A DNA stretch of 64,000 nt from Microthyrium microscopicum (lineage: Eukaryota). A model generated the notes under the pieces. The model was given only the letters and a program-made list of their open reading frames with translations. It did not search any database and was not told the DNA's origin. Shown here piece by piece: positions 213 to 64,000 of this stretch. Every line of letters begins with the position of its first letter. Position 1 is the first letter of the stretch. The DNA lies in contig MU004239.1 in assembly GCA_010405405.1 (NCBI GenBank), forward strand, positions 496,001 to 560,000, given 5' to 3'. A program made the position numbers and the translations under genes.

Positions 213-650
213 GTTAGCACTGACATCATACTCCATGGCGATCCATGGCAATACAGCTCAACGTTTGAAGCTGGGCTCTATCTTCTACCTTCTGCGGCAA
301 TGGAGCGACCAGATGGCTGCAGACTATTGCTTCCATATCCACTCACGCCTCAAAAGTGGGTCAAGTACGGCTCTGGTGATTTGCTTCACAAAGAGGATAG
401 ATTTGATGGTCTATATCAGGGCCAACGTCAAAGTCGAGGCATGCGGCACTACCTTCTTCTTGGTGAACCACAAGATCCGTGCTCGGAATGGTGCCTGCGT
501 CTAGAGCTTTTGCTACAAAATTGGAAAGATATGGTTGAGAAGGGTCATTGGAAAGTTGATGCAGATGGAGTGGCAGGAGGAATCGATATGTTCAAAGAAG
601 CTGATTCGGAAGACAAGTGGGACTTGTATCATGTCCCGAAAACTTGGTGA
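213..650 (+). CDS. Last exon of a fungal hypothetical protein (5' part lies upstream or outside the window)
   Basis: Frame is open from the TTCTAG acceptor at 212 (..DPWQYSSTFEAGLYLLP..DGCRLLLPY..WKVDADGVAGGIDMFKEADSEDKWDLYHVPKTW*). The C-terminus resembles a family of uncharacterised ascomycete proteins recalled from memory. Confidence 0.6.
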   Translation, partial: VSTDIILHGDPWQYSSTFEAGLYLLPSAAMERPDGCRLLLPYPLTPQKWVKYGSGDLLHKEDRFDGLYQGQRQSRGMRHYLLLGEPQDPCSEWCLRLELLLQNWKDMVEKGHWKVDADGVAGGIDMFKEADSEDKWDLYHVPKTW

Positions 651-1614
651 GCTAGTGCCTACAATGAGTGTACTCGATATGTTTCTGCTCAACCAGCAGT
701 AACCTAAAGATATCAAAGAAACACAATCTGCTTGCCTGCTAAGATGTAGGTGTTGCTCTCGTCATTGCACACTAACTTGATATAATCTACCTGTCAAAGT
801 CTTTGTCGAATTTGAACCATGTATTCTTTTGTGAATATCCCCATTACTTACGGATTATCATTCCAAGTTCATGAGAGCTGTTTACGTCTCTGGTGACATA
901 GGTAATCTCCCAACCAGGTAAATAAAGAGTACAATGGTGCCCTATTTGAGCCTCTGATGATCGCGAGTACCGTTAGATTTACAGGACGTAACTGCACAGA
1001 TCTGTGAATTGTGGCGAGTCAAGAGAATATCAGGGTTGATGTTATATCATAGAGTGATGTGTTATATGATCAAGCTTTCGGATCAGTCCATGATCTACGA
1101 ACGATCTAACTAACACACATTTCTTAACATGACTTCCAAGCAAGTATTACACTTACACTATAGCATACATTGAAGGCATACGTCAAGGACATTCTAAAGT
1201 ACTGTTTATGAAAGCGGGCCAAATCACGCGGGCCGCGCAACGAGTCGGATGTTCCGATTGTAGGGGAATGGCAAGGTTAGGTTACGATCTCCAGATTTAT
1301 GAAGCGACTTTGTGCGGCTCAAATCTATAGGTCGACTTTATCCAAAACCAGAAAAATGGATTACATCGTCTAGCCAGCTAACCTGGCTCCCCCGCAATGT
1401 TCTTTATATGTTATTCAGTACTAATGACGGGTATCCCGAAACGAGAGGCCAACAGTAGTTCATGAAAGTAGTGAAATTAGTGAGAACAATATCAACCCTA
1501 GATGACCTTTAGAGATGACATATAATAGAGACAAAGACCCTTTCCGCCTTGTCTTTGAAAAGCTATCCCAACAACTAATCGCAAAGTCACTCCTTTTCAA
1601 AGTCAGATATCATC

Positions 1615-23513: not shown

Positions 23514-23837
23514 CCCTTGAACTTCACATTTGAACTTTGCATGATTTACAAAGACAATGAGCTAACACTATTGTGTATTAGATTTACATTCCGTCCACCG
23601 ACGTAGAGCGTGATGCCAGTGAGGCTTGGAGTTTTGTTGTACGCTGGAACTAGATAGGTCTGGATAAGGTTGACGAGAGATTTGGTTCTGTAGCGGAGTC
23701 TACTTCAGGTTGCATTAGTAGCGCATGATGGTAGCATGAATTCATATTATAATAACGCTCATCACTTTTATCTATCTTAGCGCTTGAGTGCAACGTGAAA
23801 CAGTCCAATAATCTACTCTTTCTCTCGCCCGACCTAA

Positions 23838-25361
23838 TCACTCCAATAGCTTCTTCAGTACCTCGATCTGCTTCATGACCGCACTCTTACTGCATCCACC
23901 AGTCGCCGTCCTCTGCTCCACGCTTCGTTGATAGTCAAAGATGCTCTTGATATCATCCCCAAATCTCGCATCAACCTCCTGCAGCTCTTTGACACTCAAT
24001 TGATCCATCGGCCGTCCTTGTTTCTCCGCCAACGCCACAACCTGCCCACTAATATGATGCGTATCTCTAAATGGAACGCCCTTGCGCACTAAATACTCGG
24101 CCAAATCCGTCGCGAGCATATCTGGACTTAGCGCTGCCTGCATCTTTGCAGGGAAAATGGTGAGTGTGGAGAGAACGCCTGTTGCGATCTGAATAGAGTC
24201 GCCGACGGTCCGGACGGTGTCGAGCATAGCTTCCCAAGATTCTTGTAGATCTTTGTTATATGTGGATGGCGTGCCTTTGACGCTCATCATTAGACCGGCC
24301 ATGTGTCCAAACGTACGTCCCGCTTTTCCTCTGAGCAGCTCAAGGGAATCTGGGTTTTTCTTTTGTGGCATCAGACTTGATCCGGTGCTGTAGGCGTCTG
24401 CGAGTCGGACGAAGGCGAATTCCGCGGTGGAATAGATTATCAGGTCTTCTGCTAGTCTGCTCATGTGCAGCATGAGAAGGGACCCCCATTGCAAAGTCTC
24501 GATGATAAAGTCCCGGTCCGCAATGCCGGCCATGCTGTTGGGAAGCACGGATTCGAAACCTAGTTCGGTGGCCATGGCTTCGCGATCGATACCGAAAGGG
24601 TTTCCGGCGAGGGCGCCGAAGCCGAGAGGGGAGCGGTTTACGCGGGCGTGGACTTGGGAGAGACGTTCGTAGTCTTGGGAGAATGCGGTTGCGTGGGACA
24701 TTAGTAGGTGGGACCAGCGGACTGGTTGACTGTGAAACTGTTAGAGACTGACAGTCTGGGAAACTGGTAAGGGTGGTGCTTACGCGCGCTGTAAATGGGT
24801 GTAGCCTGGCATAACGTGTTCGATTTCAGCCTCCGCTCTGCTAGCAATCGTCTTTAAGAGTGTGGCCAAGTATCCATTCATATCAGTCAGACGGTCACGA
24901 AGCCAGAGACGCATGTCTGTTGCGACCTGGTCATTGCGGCTACGGCCAGTATGTAGTTTGCCAGCGACATCTTTGCCAATGATCTCGCCGAGACGGCGCT
25001 CATTGGCGGTGTGAATGTCTTCGTCTTGGCCAGGCACGATCACGAACTTGTCGGCTTCCCATTCTGCTTTGACAGCGAGGAGACCTTTCTCGATCTTGGC
25101 GAACTCTTCTTCCGTAAGGATGCCGGTTTTTATGTTGGCGCGGGCAAAAGCTATGGAGCCGGCGATATCTTGGGCGTAGAGGGCGCGGTCAAAGTGGATG
25201 GACTCGTTGTATGAGACCATAAGAGGATCGAGACCACCTGTGAGAGAGTTAGTGACGAACAGCTTTGTGTATCTAGAAATAGACTCTATACCGGTGAAAC
25301 GACCTCCCCAGAGCATGTTCTCCTTGGGGGCAGAGCCATCTTTTTGTGTATTGGAAGCCAT
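23838..25361 (-). CDS. ARG4: Argininosuccinate lyase, 3 exons
   Basis: [66 protein letters not shown]. Confidence 0.97.
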
Positions 25362-26828: not shown

Positions 26829-29151
26829 ATGGCTCCACCAAAGCGAGAACGGAGTGATACTCCACCCCTTCATTATGAATCAAGTGGAATTACCAAGGAT
26901 ATGAGGAAGGGAACACACAGCTGTACTGAATGTACGTTATATTGCGATTCCAATGGCCCAGGACTAACATTTTGATAGGTAGAAGGAGAAAGACTAGATG
27001 TACTCCATTGCCATCTTACCCGCAAATGTGCGTCGAGTGTTTTTCTAGAGGACTGAGATGGTATGTGTCAAATTGCATGAAGGACAGTGTCTGACATCCT
27101 TCAGTACTGATCAGTCACCGGGTCCCCGTAAGCCTGCACCGGAGCAAAAGACCAATTTAAGGGATCGAGTGAGTCGCCTGGAGCATCTAGTCCAACAAAT
27201 ACAGGAGACAAAGGATGACAAGCCAATACCTTGCGCTCGAGATACGAAAACGATATATACACGACTAATGGACGACGTAACGATCACAATACCCACTAGC
27301 TCCAAATACCAAGAGCGCAATGGCCATGCAGCATTGCAGTCGAATGCTAAACAGTTTGGTCATCCATATGGATATCTTGGTCTAGGTGCACCCACACTCC
27401 ACTCAAGGCCGAAAGACTACAAAATTCGATCTATATTTAAAGCTTCTCTACCTCCCCTTGAAGTAACTGAGCATGCACTAGAGGCCAACGCTTTCTGGTG
27501 GAATTCAATCATGGCTACAGTTGTCGACACTGATAAACTACAGCTCAAGAAAATGACCATCAAAGAGTTTGCATCCTGGGCAATGAACTATGGGTCGCCA
27601 ATGTCATGCGCGCATGTACTTCACATCATCTTGACTCAATCACCCGAATCGGAAATGGAACGACTTCTCGACCTTGTGGAGCGGTACATTCTTTCCGACG
27701 AAGAATACATGTCCACTCTGGAAGGATGTGAAGTAGCCCTATTCCACGTGAAAATGTTAGGCGATATGGGAGAGCCACAGAAAGCCTGGCAGATAACTCG
27801 AAGAGCTATTGGTTTTGCGCAAAAACTTGGATTTGACAAGGCTCGGGGCAAATTACGTCAAGACCTTATGTGGTACGGCCTATTTCACAGCGAACGCTTT
27901 GCCAGTTTGATTCTTGGAGTTCCATACGACGTTTACGATGGGCATTACAGAGTCTCCTTCTCTAATGGACCGGATGCGTACAAGAACAGAGACTTCACCT
28001 CCCGACTGGCGCAAATCGCTGGCAAAGTCGCCGACAAAATCCATGGTCTTAGTCTTACTCCTCTCTCCTTGACCGAAATTGAACAAGAGTTGGCAGCCTT
28101 GAGTGCCAGGATGCCAGAAGGCTTTTGGCAGATACCGTATTATGCGCCTTCCAATTTCCAGGAGGCCTTCCAATGGCAGGAAAAGGTGGTCGGCCAAATC
28201 TACTACTGGCAAACCCGTCTGATGCTGCACATGCCGTACATGCTGAAGAGTATGACTGAAGCCGGCTACGAAGACAGTCGAACTCTCTGCTTCGATTGCG
28301 CTCGTCAAATCCTCCGTCTCTGGTTCACTCTACGAGACCCTGCGAATGTTTTCATCTATAAAACAAAATCTATCGACTTTGTCGCATTCGTGGCAGCTGC
28401 TACAATAGTCTTCGGTCTCTTGACCTCTCCACATCGACTTAGTGAACAGCAGCAATCAGATGATTGGGACAGCATGGAATGTGCCACTGAGATATTCCAC
28501 CGCGCCTCAAAAGCACCATTTGGTCGCTTCGCAAAGCAAGGCTATCAAGAGCTTTCGCGCATCATCAGATATCGGGGCTATGTTCCAGAAGTCGAGAAGG
28601 ACGAGTTGGCGACATACATTCCCTTCTTTGGCACTGTCACTATCCATTTCCGCGAGCAGATCACCCACATTCAACGAACAGCGCCAGCGGTGCCACCGTC
28701 TCATATTCTACCTTCCCAAACCGAACCAACAGAACTAATACCACAACAACCAATCCAGAGGCAGGACATCCCAGCTCAAAGCATGCCATCACAGCTTCAG
28801 CCCCCTCCCCTCCCCTCCCAGCCAGTTCGTGGTCCTAGACTCAGTCTCAACATCCCGCAGTACTTCAACACCAAACGAGGAGGTATTACTTCAGCGCCAG
28901 TAGTCAACAACTATTTGTCTCCAGCTACGCCAACTGCACACCAGCCCTATCATAGTGCTATGTCTCGGAGTGCCATGCCTCGCACCATTGACCCGTCGCT
29001 ATTGGAGGGCGTGACGACAGCTTTCTCGCCACAGATTGTTTCCCCGTTTCAATCTTCTGCTCATGATAATTCTGCGCTTGATCGCGATTTGCATGCTTGG
29101 GATTGGCCGGCTGCGGAGCCAAGATTGTCTGCTGAAGTTGGGTTCAAATGA
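26829..29151 (+). CDS. Zn(II)2Cys6 transcription factor with fungal middle-homology region, 3 exons
   Basis: Spliced N-terminus MAPPKR..MRKGTHSCTECRRRKTRCTPLPSYPQMCVECFSRGLRC (six Cys), coiled coil LRDRVSRLEHLV, AWQITRRAIGFAQKLG, LMLHMPYML. Confidence 0.9.
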
Positions 29152-30339
29152 GGCATCCATCCACTTCCCTGTTGCAGTATGGAAGCCGCACATATGGAAA
29201 CATTCACAATTGGAGGTTGTAGTATATGGAATCATTCGCGAGTACCACGAGCTCCAGCATGAACATCCAATAACCTGATCCGGGACTACGGGAGTATTCA
29301 ATCTGGCAGTGAAGACGTCAGCTTTCAACCGGGCTGGTGGTCAGACACAGCGGACGATTTTTTGTCCATATGAAAACGCCTGGGCCACTCCATCACGTCA
29401 ACTGCTAAGAACGTAAAGGGCAGACAGAGACCACCCCCTTATCTGGCAGCTATAAGCCCTGAAGGGGCGGAAGGAATGGTCCCCCTGGAAATGGTGGGAT
29501 TGAAAGCCCACCGATAAGTTGCCTCAAGCAAGAGTTACGGTTAAGCAAGATGAGACAGATGACAAAACAAGATCAAGACCATAGCTTCCAAGCTTAGATA
29601 TGGGGCGGTATAATATCATTTGAACAATATCAGTCTTGCCCATCACAATTCAAGTACTTTGATGTCGCTACTATAGCCTTTCTGAACTTGATCTTCTGAT
29701 AGAAAGGACTTGGCATCACGACTTCATGAGATTCCTACTGTCGGGTCTTCCGGAAAGCTCTGAGAAGGTCGCGTCACTTGATGATATACTACAGGGGTCG
29801 TTTCTGTGTATATGATTCACTAGCAGGTTCTGGGACCTTGCCTGTATGGTAAGGGGATGTCATATATTCTCTACTTCAGTTTCTCTACCTTGGCTTTTAC
29901 AAAGGTACTTTGACATGAGCGGTTGCCATTATTAGACTTATTGTGGTTCATGCACATCACCATCTGGTTTGCCATATGCCAGATATTGTGATCATCATGT
30001 TGTGACTTGTCAAACAGAGTCACTTTGTCAACAGAAGTATTGCTTGCTAAAATCAGATCAAGATAGCCATACAAAATGGCCGACTCAGCTAAAGTTCCTG
30101 AATCAGAATTTGCTAACAATAGATCCCATAAAATTCTATGCCCTTTGGCCAAAAATTGCTGTCCCTTCAGCAAAGAGCAAAGTGGTTTCTCGTAAGAGTT
30201 GACCCCAAATCAATATCAAGATAAGGCAGTAATCCGACTCTCACAATTTCAGACATAATGACCTCAAAAGTAAAAAAAGACTTCTTAGACAATGAATAAT
30301 AGCACAAAAAGCCGTACCTGATCAGCAGTAGGCACAAGG

Positions 30340-30347
30340 AAAAAAAA
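30340..30347 (-). terminator. RNA polymerase III terminator (T8) of the tRNA-Leu gene
   Basis: Eight T on the minus strand starting one base after the discriminator A. Confidence 0.85.
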
Positions 30348-30348
30348 T

Positions 30349-30510
30349 TGCGCAAACTGGGATTCGAACCCAGGCGGGATAAATCCCATTGCAAGATTCA
30401 AAGCAACTTGGAAAGCTAACCGCTTGAGTGCAACGCCTTAGACCGCTCGGCTGATTAATCATTAGTAAGAAGATAGATAATTTTGACATGAAAAACATAC
30501 CCATCTGCGC
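30349..30510 (-). tRNA. tRNA-Leu(CAA) with a canonical 28-nt tRNA intron (30422-30395) and an additional 50-nt GT-AG intron (30500-30451)
   Basis: Exons 30510-30501, 30450-30423 and 30394-30349 give 84 nt: acceptor GCGCAGA/TTTGCGC plus A73, D region GCCGAGCGGTCTAAGGC, anticodon arm TTGCA-CTCAAGT-TGCAA, variable arm GGGA-TTTA-TCCC, T arm CTGGG-TTCGAAT-CCCAG. Confidence 0.9.
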
Positions 30511-31089
30511 GAGAATAGAAACATAATTTTGCATTTTTTGCAATATAGCTACAGTCTGAAAATGGGACTTTAGCAACCTTCTACACTCAACGTCTGAAAC
30601 ACTTCCGCTAATCATTCGTAGTCAGTATTTTATGCATCTCGGTTTTTTCGACTATTATAAAGATGCTTACCGCTTAATTTTGTCTCTTCTACACAAGATT
30701 TCAGACCTAGAAAGCAAAGTGCGAACCGGTTCAACTTCAGTTCCCGTATGAATCTTTTCACCCCTTTTCAGATTTGGTACCTTGGAACTCAACGTAAACA
30801 TCACACATTACTCCCAAATGCTATTGCTTCACTTGAAGGAGCATGTCTTCTAATCTTATGTCGTGATGATAGTCGCACTTGTGCAAATCAACTAGGGAAA
30901 AAAATGAGCAGCGGGGCTAAACCATATATGGGAAAAAGAGCTGAGTACTTTTAATGTCGCCTTTCGATGACTGTTTTGGGTATGACTGTAAAGGATGTTA
31001 TGGACCTTCCTAAGCTTATAAGTCTCTGAGACCGAACGAAAGATTCAGAACCCTATATTCTCCACAAACAGCGCTCTAGTTGCAGCATA

Positions 31090-32099
31090 ATGGCCGACAA
31101 AACAGAATCATATGTTGATCCGAACCACAGTGCTCCCCCAACCATTGTTTTCACTCAATCCGAAATCAACGACTATCTGAACTTTCTGGAACTACCACAA
31201 TACTGTAATCTCAGTCCCGAAGCACCTCGCGATGTCAAACTGCTCACTGCGCTCCATCAAATGCAAATCACCAAAGTTCCATATGAAAATCTAGCTCTCC
31301 ACTATTCTAGCCATCACAGCACAAATCTGGATCCCAAGTTCATACATAACAAGATCCTCACTCAAAAAGGTCGCGGTGGGTATTGCATGGAGATATCAAT
31401 TTTCTTCTGTGCATTGCTGCGAGCTATCGGGTTCAACGTGTACCATACAGGCGTGCGAGGACGGAATCGAAAGAATGGAGTTCCTGAGGGTCCTTTCATG
31501 GAGGTGTAAGATTTGGTCTCTTCATTATTGTTGTTATATACTAACAGGTCCTTAGAGCTCATATAATCAACATTGTCACGTTTCCTAGTGGAGAGAAATA
31601 CGGAGTCGATGTTGCGTTTGGCGGCGATGGAATGACTAAACCTATGCGTCTGGTTGCTCATGAGGTGTCGCTAAACATGGGCACGCAGGAAGTGCGATAT
31701 GAGCTTGCTCCAATTGCACAGTTTGCAAGCGACCATAAGTTGTGGATCTACCAGTATCGCAATCAGAAAGATCGACCGTGGGTGTCGTTCTATTGCTTTG
31801 CAGAGGTGCCATATTTGCACGGGGACTTTGTACTCATGAGCGAGTGGGTCAACAGAAATTCCCCTTTTCAGGTCGATTTCGTGCTTATGATCAAGTTTTT
31901 GTGGGATGGAAAAAGTGTGTATGGGAAGAAGATGTTTATACAGGATGTGTTGAAGCAGAATGACGGAGGAAAGACCAGAGTTGTGAGAGAATGTCGGACT
32001 GAACAAGAAAGGATTCAGCTTTTGCAAGAAGAGTTCGGTATTGAGTTGAGCGAGGAGGAAATCAACGGTATCAAAGGAACAAAAACCGAGTTGCGCTAG
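31090..32099 (+). CDS. Arylamine N-acetyltransferase, paralog B, 2 exons
   Basis: VPYENLALHYS, GRGGYCMEIS (Cys), intron 31506-31555, AHIINIV (His), VDVAFGGDG (Asp), LWIYQYR. Confidence 0.9.
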
Positions 32100-32408
32100 T
32101 ATTGTATTCGCACTCAATATGGCTGGTTAGAACGGTATTTATAGAGCTTAGAAGCATATTTGGACCTGTGAAACATATTAGCATTCTCTTTTCTTGGAGG
32201 TAGATGCTTGACAACAATGGTGACTAGGTCATATGAGAGATGTTTCGACTGCTTTCTATTTTAGTAGTACATGTCTATCCGGAACGTCTATGAAGGTATT
32301 ATAATTAGATAAATGTATAGTAAAGTTCCTGAGCTCCACTCTATCATTATGTTCGTAATGTCGTAAGTTCATACCTGTCCTTTGAAATCTTCATCACAGG
32401 CGATGGGC

Positions 32409-62058: not shown

Positions 62059-63968
62059 ATGGTACAGGCCAAGGTACGCGGCCAAAAACGGCCTTTTGTT
62101 GCCACTAGCGACACAGACAGTATTGGCACCGACTTTACTGCTACCACTTACTACTCTACAAAAGAATATCAGGTCGATCAAATTCTCGCAGAGAAGACAC
62201 TCGATAATGGGAAGCAACAGTACTTGATTCAATGGGATGGCTACGATCTTACTCGTGCAACATGGGAGCCAAGCGAAGGCATTCCAACTGCTTCCAAGTT
62301 TGCCTGGTCCCGTCGTAAAAAAGACATACGGAACAATCTCAAAGATCCCTTCAATGTTCAGAAATGGGAGCAGGAAAATGAGGAAGCTGCCATCACCAAA
62401 ATGAAACGCCGCCTAAAGAAGAGGAAATCCAGAAATCTCCCACTGCATTCAGAGTTGGCAAAAGTCAGAGAGCACCTCGCGAACGATGAGCTTAAGCTGT
62501 ATCTGCATCCCAAAGAAATCGAAGAATGGCTTAAAACGCTCCCAGGACAGAATGACCCCGCCGAAGATAGTGATACGAGCGATGATATTCCACTTGCCCA
62601 GCGAAAACGAGGTATAGCTCATGTTATCAAAAAGTCAAAGAATATAGACGAATCCTCGCCTCAAAATATTCGCCTGTCTGTCGGTTCGGCGCATCATGCA
62701 GAAGCCCAACCTTTGTTTGTGGACAATGTTTCATCCGACGACGAAACTCCTCTAGCGCAACGAAGGTTAAGACATTCCACAACCTCGCTAGCTGTCATTA
62801 ATACACGAAGGTCGTCCTTACCCGTCACTTCTCTGGCGCCTAAACCAGGCGGCGAAAAACCAACTGTCAAGAGATCTAGCACTATGGCAGGGCTGCCTTC
62901 GACTACAGCTCTGAAAGCCGCTTCGACTGTTGCCTCTGCAAGCCGGATTGAAACTATCAAATCCATCAAGTCTAGCGATAGCAACAAGAAGGTCACGGCG
63001 CGCAAGTCGAGGCCCATCAAAGCCTCAGTGTTCTTGAAGCCGGAGCGCAAGAAGAGGGCCCCGGCGACTACACCTAGCATTCATGCCTTTAAAACCTTGA
63101 GCCATGAAAACAACATGAGAAAAAAACAGAAACTCCGGGCCGAAGAAGCTCCTCCGGCCCATATGTTGACTTTCTTCGAGCCTGCCACGAACGAAATCAT
63201 ACAGCATGCCCAAGCTCCTCCCCTTATAATTCCCCCGACCGGCTCTTTACAACCGGTTGGCTCAACTATCAACTCTCCACCAACTGACCCGCTCTCCTCG
63301 AAAGTTATTTCTCCGATATCTCGACAATTGGCATCGACGCAATTGTCACCCGTGATCAAGCCCTCAACTCTACCGACATCTCCTGAGCAGCATCGTCAAC
63401 CTCCTGGCTTTATCCCGCTTGCATGCCCATATGTCGCAGACAAGGAGCCTTGCACTAGAGGTTCAGGATGCTTTTTCCGTCATAACCGCGCCGAAACCAA
63501 CAAAGTTGCCTCTAGAGTTCTCTTTTATCAAGCAGAAGCAGAAAGCCAGAAACGAGGAACGTTCGAATTCAAATTTGGGTTCTTCAAAGCAACCAAGATA
63601 TGTTCTTTTTGGTTGAAACACGGGTACGCATACGACTTTCGATGTGCAATCATTTCCCTAGTTAATACTAATCATAATGATTCTAGTTCCTGCAAAAACT
63701 CAGATGAAGTCTGCTGGTATGCTCATTGGAAGCCCGAGACAACGGTCAACACAGAACTCGCAAAAAACCCTTTGGCTTGCCCTTACTTCAGATCTAGTGG
63801 AGGCTGCAGAAAGCCAGAATGGCAGTGTGAGTATAAACACACACTAGAAGGGCCAGCAGCGCCGTTCGTAGGCAACCAGATGCAGCGTGCGTCGACTTGT
63901 TGGTTCTGGTGGCACCATCCGAAAGGCTGCAATAAAGGCGACAAGTGTACTTTTGCTCATGCAGATCA
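62059..63968 (+). CDS. Chromodomain plus multiple CCCH zinc-finger protein (continues beyond the window)
   Basis: Chromodomain EYQVDQILAEK..QYLIQWDGYDLTRATWEP and four CCCH fingers. Intron 63624-63686. Next donor GTAAGT at 63969. Confidence 0.85.
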
Positions 63969-64000
63969 GTAAGTTGACTCTCTCCATGTATCCATGAAAC

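Follow-up and report, generated by a model that had tools for sequence, protein, structure and literature searches.

A tRNA-Leu(CAA) locus on the minus strand in the genome of Microthyrium microscopicum, a filamentous fungus of the Dothideomycetes, raises the question of whether a nuclear tRNA gene can be interrupted by an intron of the kind found in mRNAs. From the letters of the 64-kb window (the whole stretch of DNA analysed here), the original prediction held that an apparently 5'-truncated tRNA is completed by a short exon lying 50 nt farther upstream, that the intervening 50 nt are a GT-AG intron of spliceosomal type in the D-arm, and that a 28-nt intron of the normal tRNA type is present as well. 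To our knowledge, spliceosomal and tRNA introns are handled as two unconnected subjects in textbooks and current reviews. Pre-tRNA splicing is contrasted with the spliceosome in PMC10275265, and no paper in the literature searched, which lay mostly outside subscription journals, reports a tRNA gene with a spliceosomal intron. The evidence set out below makes us almost certain that a real spliceosomal intron sits within this tRNA gene sequence, and leads us to weaker views on how, and whether, a working tRNA is made from it.

The layout of the gene is given in Table 1. Exon 1 is GCGCAGATGG, its letters as predicted, and after removal of the 50 nt the junction of exons 1 and 2 reads GCGCAGAUGG joined to CCGAGCGG. 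The boundary of the intron is ambiguous by one base (G on either side), GT..AG being one of two equivalent placements.

Table 1. Coordinates of the split tRNA-Leu(CAA) gene and its host transcript within the window
Feature	Position	Strand	Basis or remark
tRNA-Leu(CAA) locus	30349-30510	minus	letters identical to those in the original prediction
Exon 1, GCGCAGATGG, nt 1-10	30501-30510	minus	GCGCAGA 5' acceptor strand, U8, G9, G10
50-nt GT-AG intron, tRNA positions 10/11 (D-arm)	30451-30500	minus	sequence and X5 contig
5' splice site GTATGT	30495-30500	minus	sequence
T5 run within the 50-nt intron, directly 3' of the 5' splice site	30490-30494	minus	sequence
Branch-site motif TACTAAT, presumed branch A 30462	30461-30467	minus	followed by 10 nt ending in CAG
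3' CAG of the 50-nt intron	30451-30453	minus	sequence
Exon 2, D-arm and 5' half of anticodon arm to G37, anticodon CAA	30423-30450	minus	ARAGORN, sequence
28-nt anticodon-loop intron, endonuclease type	30395-30422	minus	ARAGORN; placement ambiguous by 1 nt
Exon 3, 3' anticodon stem, long variable arm, T-arm, 3' acceptor strand, A73	30349-30394	minus	ARAGORN, sequence
B box GGTTCGAATCC in T-arm of exon 3	within 30349-30394	minus	sequence
T8 run, one base past A73	30340-30347	minus	sequence; Pol III terminator-like, function putative
Host exon B, 107 nt	30501-30607	minus	X5 contig piece between two joints
Rest of host exon B, 5' leader of the embedded pre-tRNA	30511-30607	minus	X5 contig piece
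TATATT, -37 to -32 from tRNA +1	30542-30547	minus	sequence
Upstream 63-nt GT-AG intron of host transcript, GTAAGC..TACTGAC..TAG	30608-30670	minus	absent in X5, kept in DNA contig

As had been foreseen, standard scanners miss the gene in its native form. ARAGORN called no tRNA in the 64-kb window, either by default or with introns allowed, and Rfam gave none in the window at gathering scores and none at the tRNA-Leu locus even at E<=10. A low-stringency ARAGORN call at the native locus, a 'Gln' tRNA with a 67-nt intron, was judged spurious, and there was otherwise no call. With 30451-30500 removed, ARAGORN calls an 84-nt tRNA-Leu(CAA) in which GCGCAGA pairs 7/7 with TTTGCGC at 30350-30356 (one G.U) to form a 7-bp acceptor stem, and the call includes the long variable arm and the 28-nt anticodon-loop intron. 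The result is the complete class II cloverleaf that had been predicted, with U8, G9 and G10 supplied by exon 1, with the conserved bases of the D- and T-loops, with A73, which we take to be a leucine identity element, and with no structural defect across the 84 nt. Elsewhere in the window, a 15-nt match to the anticodon arm (23781-23795) had no tRNA context and was regarded as chance.

The completion of the acceptor stem by exon 1 exceeds chance. Only 7 of the window's 127,980 10-mers (both strands) could complete the stem together with U8-G9-G10, and just one of these seven, exon 1 itself, is followed by GT. The strict pattern GTATGT..TACTAAY..YAG has a single occurrence in the 64 kb, both strands considered, and that occurrence is the 50-nt intron.

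That the 50 nt are really spliced out, inside a longer RNA, is seen in a 6198-nt contig assembled from a public run (X5), which aligns to 29600-32148 with three joints. One skips 30451-30500 exactly, with GT..AG on the minus strand, and so contains the predicted junction of 30501 with 30450; a second, also GT..AG on the minus strand, skips 30608-30670, 107 nt upstream of the 50-nt intron; the third skips 31506-31555, with GT..AG on the plus strand, and corresponds to an intron in an N-acetyltransferase (NAT) mRNA. The 28-nt tRNA intron is retained in X5 and the contig continues beyond the T8 run. Removal of the NAT intron gives an uninterrupted 319-codon N-acetyltransferase frame, where the unspliced frame stops at codon 139, and both halves of the ORF match PF00797; since the NAT joint restores this frame, X5 represents spliced RNA. 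Its origin from RNA is deduced from the three GT..AG joints, and the RNA evidence is one assembled contig of one run, in which transcripts of both strands merge and strand, ends and local depth are not recorded. Because the 50 nt are removed and the 28-nt intron kept, the spliced RNA amounts to a complete, canonical intron-containing pre-tRNA-Leu(CAA). A DNA contig (X3) is colinear over the stretch, with 0 differences and all introns present. Two further runs, X6 and X7, matched the window identically only in fragments of 232 and 286 nt (30693-30924 and 31140-31425), which do not reach the tRNA and are uninformative about it.

The removed segment has the signals of an mRNA intron. Its 5' splice site, GTATGT, fits GTRNGT, and a CTRAY branch motif lies shortly before the YAG (TACTAAT, then 10 nt ending in CAG), the branch-site assignment resting on motif and spacing. 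The NAT intron is also 50 nt long, with TACTAAC and then 10 nt ending in TAG, and the claim that the tRNA intron shares its size and spacing with mRNA introns of the window thus holds for this one RNA-verified intron. A passage of PMC4457414 gives 50-55 bp for regular fungal introns and sets introner-like elements apart as longer; at 50 nt the tRNA intron does not exceed the regular length. BLAST found no second copy of either the 50-nt or the 63-nt intron in the 64-kb window.

A scan of metagenome contigs for other split tRNAs looked for CAG directly ahead of a D-arm of Leu type, without demanding a 5' splice site or a branch site, and returned 11 loci, two of which have the architecture of the Microthyrium gene. 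In the first (L006), GGACAGATGG is followed by a 53-nt intron (GTAAGT..CACTAAC+10 nt..CAG), and ARAGORN, which made no native call, finds an 83-nt tRNA-Leu(CAG) once the 53 nt are removed. Removing instead 49 nt that start at GTTACA likewise leads ARAGORN to a call at this locus; GTAAGT was preferred for its 5' site and acceptor stem. In the second (L002), GGCGAGATGG is followed by a 43-nt intron (GTGCGT..TGCTGAC+10 nt..CAG) ahead of a Leu(AAG) body that ends at the contig edge before the 3' acceptor strand and is intact as far as the contig goes. The Rfam tRNA model matches L006 and L002 only over positions 9-63 of 71, with 33.8 and 27.9 bits. Both 5' sites fit GTRNGT, and the motif-plus-10-nt spacing is common to the tRNA-Leu(CAA), L006, L002 and NAT introns. 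The three tRNA introns have only the splice signals in common, their sequences being otherwise unrelated, and their shared location at position 10/11 was imposed by the search pattern and is no evidence of a hot spot. We saw no clear ORF in the flanks of L002 and L006. None of the remaining nine loci is a split tRNA-Leu gene. Four are tRNA-like repeats (L008 and the mutually identical L001, L009 and L010), two (L004 and L005) are fragments of bacterial-type tRNAs adjoining tRNA-Ser, and three (L003, L007 and L011) are non-tRNA. As a control, 77 loci from prokaryotes (71) and viruses (6) that carry this D-arm motif were examined, and 0 showed the split pattern; 57 are ordinary tRNAs and 20 gave no tRNA call.

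These observations bear on two explanations that would do away with a spliceosomal intron altogether. It could be argued that the 50 nt entered the sequence through faulty assembly, or that the exon-1 10-mer is coincidental, all the more as X3, the only DNA run over the locus, may be the source of the assembly and hence not independent. However, an erroneous insert would not have GT, a branch motif and AG, nor would it be missing so precisely from the RNA-derived X5 contig, in which two further introns are absent as well; for coincidence, the acceptor completion has a rate of about 7 in 127,980 per site, and against both stands the same design at two loci from other contigs. We find this explanation scarcely credible. 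The second would make the 50 nt an ectopic intron of endonuclease type, cut via a bulge-helix-bulge (BHB), with GT..AG a coincidence, and sections of PMC3728597 and PMC3978253 do describe nuclear tRNA genes of Cyanidioschyzon merolae with ectopic and multiple BHB introns. At the junctions of all three loci, however, we found no BHB with 3-nt bulges, a 4-bp helix and flanking helices, in a test that also fails on the canonical 28-nt intron and therefore informs only on the strict BHB; bare 4-bp helix matches were as frequent as chance would give, recurring in 254-568 of 1000 controls with shuffled introns. A 5' site, an equally spaced branch motif and YAG are present in each of the three introns, and X5 loses the 50 nt plus two GT..AG introns, yet keeps the true endonuclease intron. 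This second explanation, too, we regard as very remote, and a spliceosomal intron is the reading we carry forward.

What sort of transcript carries the intron is a more delicate matter. The longest ATG ORF of the host RNA is 90 aa and ends within the tRNA, and with no convincing ORF the RNA appears to be non-coding. It looks like a Pol II host transcript on account of the upstream GT..AG intron (30608-30670) and its continuity past T8, as far as a contig without starts, ends or strand can indicate. The presence of that second intron, the continuity past T8 and the intronic T5, a feature passed over in the original prediction, all favour a Pol II route; a T5 run would hinder Pol III read-through and is likely to act as a pause or terminator. 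The gene also keeps Pol III features, namely a B box, T8 and TATATT at -37, which would fit a Pol III past or present. The B box GGTTCGAATCC matches the consensus RGTTCRANTCC of PMC7954030, and the A-box region of the unspliced DNA, CAGCCGAGCGG, fits the consensus TRGYNNARNNG of the same paper except at the first position. In the DNA, tRNA nt 1-10 lie 50 nt farther upstream. Since CAGCCGAGCGG persists in unspliced DNA, TFIIIC-directed initiation would probably fall inside the intron, and Pol III, if guided by nothing but the internal promoter, would then start there and yield a 5'-truncated, useless RNA.

In the pathway we propose, the productive precursor would be the non-coding host transcript, probably made by Pol II. 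The spliceosome would remove the 50 nt and restore the tRNA body; the pre-tRNA would next be excised by RNase P and RNase Z, and the tRNA splicing endonuclease and ligase would remove the 28-nt intron, with CCA being added. The outcome would be a functioning tRNA whose production calls on two splicing machineries with no relation to each other. We lean towards this whole chain, functional tRNA by the Pol II route included, although only slightly. The continuity of X5 through the tRNA means that at least some of the host RNA is uncleaved by RNase P/Z.

A route closer to that of U6 has been weighed against it, in which Pol III would start upstream of exon 1, at the TATATT lying at -37 to -32, and read through the intron, which the spliceosome would remove, the long X5 transcript being irrelevant read-through. 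S. pombe U6 is Pol III-made and has a spliceosomal intron, as do many fungal U6 genes according to a portion of PMC5855946. The T8 right after A73 would suit such a route, and so would the introns of L006 and L002, in which no T run exceeds 3. Set against these are the T5 just after the 5' splice site, which is likely to pause or terminate Pol III, the A-box-like sequence beside the 3' end of the intron, which would presumably place initiation inside it, and the observed RNA, which has another intron upstream and passes T8. We consider this route improbable. The analogy with U6 drawn in the original prediction stands for spliceosomal-type removal and looks less apt for the Pol III precursor, since the RNA is longer, twice spliced and runs past T8.

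A stronger challenge to the proposed pathway is that the gene is dead or dispensable. It would lie within a Pol II non-coding unit and be spliced but never matured, with ordinary Leu(CAA) genes serving in its place, and the perfect cloverleaf would reflect only a recent intron insertion. Intron gain is active in the Dothideomycetes, where introner-like elements are described in part of PMC4457414; the sole RNA observed is long and retains the 28-nt intron as well as both flanks; and by moving the 5' acceptor strand away from the internal promoter the insertion would probably cripple normal Pol III expression. If ordinary Leu(CAA) copies exist elsewhere in the genome, the split copy could indeed be dispensable. 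X3 gave a single record at 80% likeness, with a 17-kb contig unbroken through the tRNA; this hints that there is no second identical tRNA copy, but contigs show presence, not absence, and we do not count it as evidence. Yet the tRNA-Leu(CAA) is structurally flawless over its 84 nt, L006 is equally perfect and L002 is intact to the contig end, their introns being unrelated. Moreover, 50 nt is the size of a settled regular intron rather than of a fresh, longer introner, the intron has a single copy in the window, and both the T8 terminator and the B box are intact. Judged from sequence, that the cloverleaf is intact in both of the independent complete cases speaks for its having been maintained by selection. 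A dead gene therefore seems to us unlikely, while deserving to be taken seriously.

With a functional, Pol II-derived tRNA as the preferred reading, it is tempting to look beyond a single locus. There may be, in fungi, an overlooked class of nuclear tRNA genes that escape tRNAscan-type tools, are interrupted by spliceosomal introns, have moved from Pol III to spliced Pol II hosts, and supply tRNA in a manner dependent on both spliceosome and endonuclease; we put this forward tentatively, with rather more doubt than belief. Were it true, Leu-CAA here would possibly come from the genome's only such gene, the class would span at least three lineages or isoacceptors (CAA, CAG, AAG), and tRNA-Leu supply may be coupled to Pol II regulation. 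As described in part of PMC8450103, tRNAscan-SE seeks non-canonical introns only with archaeal BHB models, and for this reason a tRNA gene that needs the spliceosome would show that fungal tRNA gene counts can be incomplete. If the tRNA does need the spliceosome, tRNAs would join the hosts of spliceosomal introns, a natural tRNA would probably come from a Pol II transcript, and with this gene one could follow, in a clean setting, how new introns become established in genes for structured RNAs.

Several known systems offer points of comparison. Tani and Ohshima, in 1989 and 1991, and Canzler and colleagues, in 2016, reportedly described mRNA-type introns in fungal U6 snRNA genes, and Bhattacharya and colleagues are said to have described, in 2000, spliceosomal introns in nuclear rRNA genes of ascomycetes. 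Such introns in the U6 genes of Schizosaccharomyces pombe and other fungi are covered in a section of PMC5855946, and the Microthyrium gene resembles them in its canonical 5' site, branch and 3' site within a small structured RNA gene of Pol III class, in an intron sequence that is otherwise unconserved, and in its fungal host. It differs in that the host is a tRNA with an endonuclease-type intron of its own besides, and in that the observed RNA is longer, twice spliced and extends beyond the Pol III terminator, pointing to a possible Pol II route. A tRNA also lies outside the spliceosome, and the origin by reverse splicing in the active site proposed for U6 is thus not obviously applicable. 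The non-coding hosts of spliceosomal introns listed in that section of PMC5855946 are U6, U2, U5, U1 and rRNA, with tRNA absent from the list. The introns of ascomycete nuclear rRNA genes, cited by way of the same source, are likewise of spliceosomal type in a structural RNA gene not belonging to Pol II, but the host RNA is another and so is the polymerase, Pol I in their case.

Among tRNA genes the nearest parallels are the ectopic and multiple BHB introns and permuted tRNA genes of C. merolae and the non-canonical tRNA introns of archaea (sections of PMC3728597 and PMC3978253). There, as here, tRNAs are interrupted outside 37/38, including in the D-arm, a gene can hold more than one intron, and scanners miss them. 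Those introns, however, are cut by the tRNA endonuclease at a BHB, whereas the Microthyrium gene has none and carries instead GT..branch..AG, removed along with mRNA introns. The RNase P RNA of insects and crustaceans, which sits inside a Pol II transcript's intron (part of PMC6797745), is also an ancestrally Pol III structural RNA that has moved into a spliced Pol II host, as we propose for tRNA-Leu. It is released from an intron, whereas the tRNA gene is itself split by one and lies in host exons. RNase P and RNase Z free tRNA folds from Pol II transcripts in the MALAT1 mascRNA and in engineered arrays of tRNA and guide RNA. Neither of these is a natural split tRNA gene with an internal spliceosomal intron, but the release step from Pol II RNA is the same one that we propose for tRNA-Leu(CAA).

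The original prediction of a GT-AG intron in a tRNA-Leu(CAA) gene of Microthyrium microscopicum, a filamentous ascomycete of the Dothideomycetes, now has the support of independent RNA data and of two additional loci. The minus-strand sequence quoted for 30349-30510 proved identical when re-read from the window, and the expectation that standard scanners miss the gene was borne out. ARAGORN made no tRNA call in the whole 64-kb window with intron search on or off, and Rfam returned none there at gathering scores; relaxing the cut-off to E<=10 still gave no tRNA hit at the locus. When 30451-30500 was deleted by script, ARAGORN called a tRNA-Leu(CAA) of 84 nt; its acceptor stem has 7 bp, one of them G.U, its variable arm is long, and an intron of 28 nt sits in the anticodon loop. 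Only 7 of the 127,980 10-mers in the window can complete the acceptor stem together with U8-G9-G10, just one of these being followed by GT, and the 50-nt intron itself is the window's single match to the strict pattern GTATGT..TACTAAY..YAG; the completion of the acceptor is thus not a chance match. Regular fungal introns are described as 50-55 bp long, and since introner-like elements are described as longer (PMC4457414) and no second copy is present in the window, a freshly inserted introner is unlikely.

Features of the tRNA-Leu(CAA) locus and its surroundings in the window
Feature	Position	Strand	Basis
tRNA-Leu(CAA), first ten nucleotides, GCGCAGATGG	30501-30510	-	sequence
50-nt segment, GTATGT start, CAG end	30451-30500	-	sequence
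TACTAAT inside the 50-nt segment	30461-30467	-	sequence
Rest of tRNA-Leu(CAA), down to A73 at 30349	30349-30450	-	sequence
28-nt insert, anticodon loop	30395-30422	-	sequence, ARAGORN
T8 run downstream of tRNA-Leu(CAA)	30340-30347	-	sequence
Host-transcript upstream intron, GTAAGC..TACTGAC..TAG	30608-30670	-	X5 joint
Host upstream exon	30671 to about 30850	-	X5 contig
N-acetyltransferase (PF00797) gene, two ORF pieces; positive control	31090-32099	+	Pfam and X5 contig
N-acetyltransferase intron, 50 nt, GTAAGA..TACTAAC..TAG	31506-31555	+	absent from X5 contig
697-codon ORF, neighbour	27058-29151		99% identical to Microthyrium microscopicum protein (NCBI)
637-codon ORF, N-terminal chromo domain (PF00385)	62059-63972	+	no further Pfam match

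A 15-nt exact copy of a tRNA anticodon-arm segment (CGTTGCACTCAAGCG) lies at 23781-23795 (-), just downstream of an ORF at 23838-24701(-); it has no tRNA context around it and is probably a chance match (in-window E 0.005).

Records of public runs X5 (taken as RNA), X3 (DNA), X6 and X7 (both of small share) were compared with 29600-32300; four DNA runs are possibly the source of the assembly. The X3 contig was colinear over this region with zero differences. X5 gave one contig of 6198 nt spanning 29600-32148, with three joints. As an assembled product it carries no information on strand, transcript ends or local depth, and transcripts from the two strands have evidently been fused in it. Joints 1 and 2 omit 30451-30500 and 30608-30670, each with plus-strand ends CT..AC, that is GT..AG on the minus strand, and joint 3 omits 31506-31555 with GT..AG ends on the plus strand. 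Joint 3 sits between two ORFs that each match the N-acetyltransferase family PF00797; removal of its 50 nt gives an open 319-codon frame and retention a stop at codon 139, and because this joint restores the PF00797 frame we conclude that X5 carries spliced RNA. In this one contig of one run the 50 nt in the tRNA are therefore spliced out precisely where predicted, the boundary being ambiguous by one base (G|G), and the 28-nt anticodon-loop intron is kept in the same RNA. The splice signals and the exact absence from RNA rule against an assembly artefact.

Metagenome contigs were scanned for CAG followed by a Leu-type D-arm, U8 being found in a normal tRNA where this CAG stands; a 5' splice site, a branch site and an acceptor complement were not required. 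The same architecture was found in two of the 11 loci. In L006, GGACAGATGG is followed by 53 nt (GTAAGT..CACTAAC and 10 nt to CAG) and a tRNA body, and ARAGORN called an 83-nt tRNA-Leu(CAG) solely once the 53 nt were removed; the acceptor stem has 7 bp, the anticodon loop lacks an intron, and runs of T5 and T7 lie downstream. In L002, GGCGAGATGG precedes 43 nt (GTGCGT..TGCTGAC and 10 nt to CAG) and a Leu(AAG) body, the contig stopping in the T-arm before the 3' strand of the acceptor stem. The Rfam tRNA model aligned to L006 and L002 over positions 9-63 of 71 only (33.8 and 27.9 bits); both are tRNA bodies with no 5' acceptor strand next to them. All three introns are alike in splice signals and branch-to-end spacing only, and their common position 10/11 was imposed by the search pattern and so gives no evidence of a hot spot. 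In a control scan, YAG plus the D-arm motif matched 71 prokaryotic-genome loci and 6 loci on viral contigs, none of the 77 with the split pattern: 57 are tRNAs of the ordinary kind, and in the other 20 a tRNA is not created by any GT..AG removal.

The nine remaining metagenome loci were rejected: they are repeats resembling tRNA, fragments of bacterial tRNAs, or sequence that is not tRNA. L001, L009 and L010 (identical) and L008 carry, at ~495-620, a repeated unit of CAG, Leu-type D-arm, GGTTCGAATCC T-arm and conserved GT-rich sequence; ARAGORN made no call in it, natively or after any GT..AG removal, and it may be a tRNA-derived, SINE-like repeat of some eukaryote. L004, L005 and the prokaryotic L033 and L037 have a complete bacterial tRNA-Ser(TGA) and, about 60-110 nt upstream of it, a truncated tRNA 5' part (D-arm, half anticodon arm) that looks like the tRNA-end duplication an integrated element leaves behind. 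Among the prokaryotic matches (L012-L082), 54 of 71 are native tRNA-His(GTG), mostly from Chloroflexota (Dehalococcoidia), with a D-arm identical to the eukaryotic Leu-type GCCGAGYGGTYTAAGGC and U8-A9 before it. Five viral contigs (L083-L086, L088) share a conserved, apparently protein-coding stretch with a D-arm-like 19-mer, and this is not a tRNA. In L006 a 113-codon stop-free frame, 455-796 (+), runs from inside the intron through the entire tRNA-Leu(CAG) and past it. A7-U8-G9 forms ATG shortly before the 5' splice site in L006 and in the window, which we take as coincidence since the window frame stops after 12 codons.

A rival reading is an ectopic endonuclease intron such as those of Cyanidioschyzon or archaea; this type needs a bulge-helix-bulge (BHB; PMC3978253). 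A BHB with flanking helices is impossible at the junctions of the window, L006 and L002, and bare 4-bp matches are no more than expected by chance (present in 254-568 of 1000 shuffles); the canonical 28-nt intron fails this test too, so it covers the strict BHB only. Moreover, X5 loses the 50 nt alongside mRNA introns and keeps the true tRNA intron.

A short tRNA precursor does not fit the X5 RNA, which has a further GT..AG intron 107 nt upstream and runs beyond T8. This host transcript lies head to head with the N-acetyltransferase gene and is apparently non-coding. With both introns removed there is no convincing minus-strand reading frame, the longest ATG ORF being 90 aa (start 30801, end 30416 within the tRNA), and Rfam found no other RNA families in 30250-30900. 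The host is probably a non-coding transcript made by Pol II, and in our reading its exon 30501-30607 gives the tRNA's first ten nucleotides and 5' leader. What the data show is a spliceosomal-type intron in the tRNA gene sequence, spliced in a longer transcript to leave a product with an intact intron-containing pre-tRNA. RNase P and RNase Z would then cut the tRNA out of this transcript, and tRNA endonuclease, ligase and CCA addition would complete it. These two enzymes are able to release tRNAs from Pol II transcripts, as with mascRNA and tRNA-guide arrays.

According to the main rival, a dead or dispensable gene is spliced merely as a piece of a non-coding transcript. The sole RNA seen at the locus is indeed the long transcript, not mature tRNA, but the intron is of settled size and the two complete cases, which are independent, both have flawless cloverleaves, which makes this the less probable reading. 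A route like that of U6, in which a Pol III transcript is spliced by the spliceosome, is more doubtful still. It is kept as a rival because of TATATT at -37, a perfect B box and T8, the precedent of S. pombe U6 (PMC5855946), and introns in L006 and L002 whose longest T run is <=3. However, the A-box region of the unspliced DNA, CAGCCGAGCGG, fits the consensus TRGYNNARNNG (PMC7954030) except at the first position, so that factor-directed transcription would begin within the intron and yield a truncated RNA, and a T5 run follows immediately after the intron's 5' site. At the window locus Pol III is therefore less attractive than the Pol II route.

Full-text literature searches, which covered few subscription journals, turned up no tRNA gene described as holding a spliceosomal intron. 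In the portions available, tRNA-biology reviews handle tRNA introns as endonuclease substrates (PMC10275265; PMC12530127), and the tRNAscan-SE 2.0 paper describes non-canonical introns as sought by archaeal BHB models only (PMC8450103), so spliceosomally split tRNA genes would be dropped or reported truncated. Closest in kind are the mRNA-type introns of U6 (in fungi), U1, U2 and U5 snRNA genes, together with spliceosomal introns in the rRNA genes of ascomycetes, and tRNA is not among the hosts named in the U6 review (PMC5855946). The present case adds to these structural RNA genes a tRNA gene that carries, besides its spliceosomal intron, one of the tRNA type.
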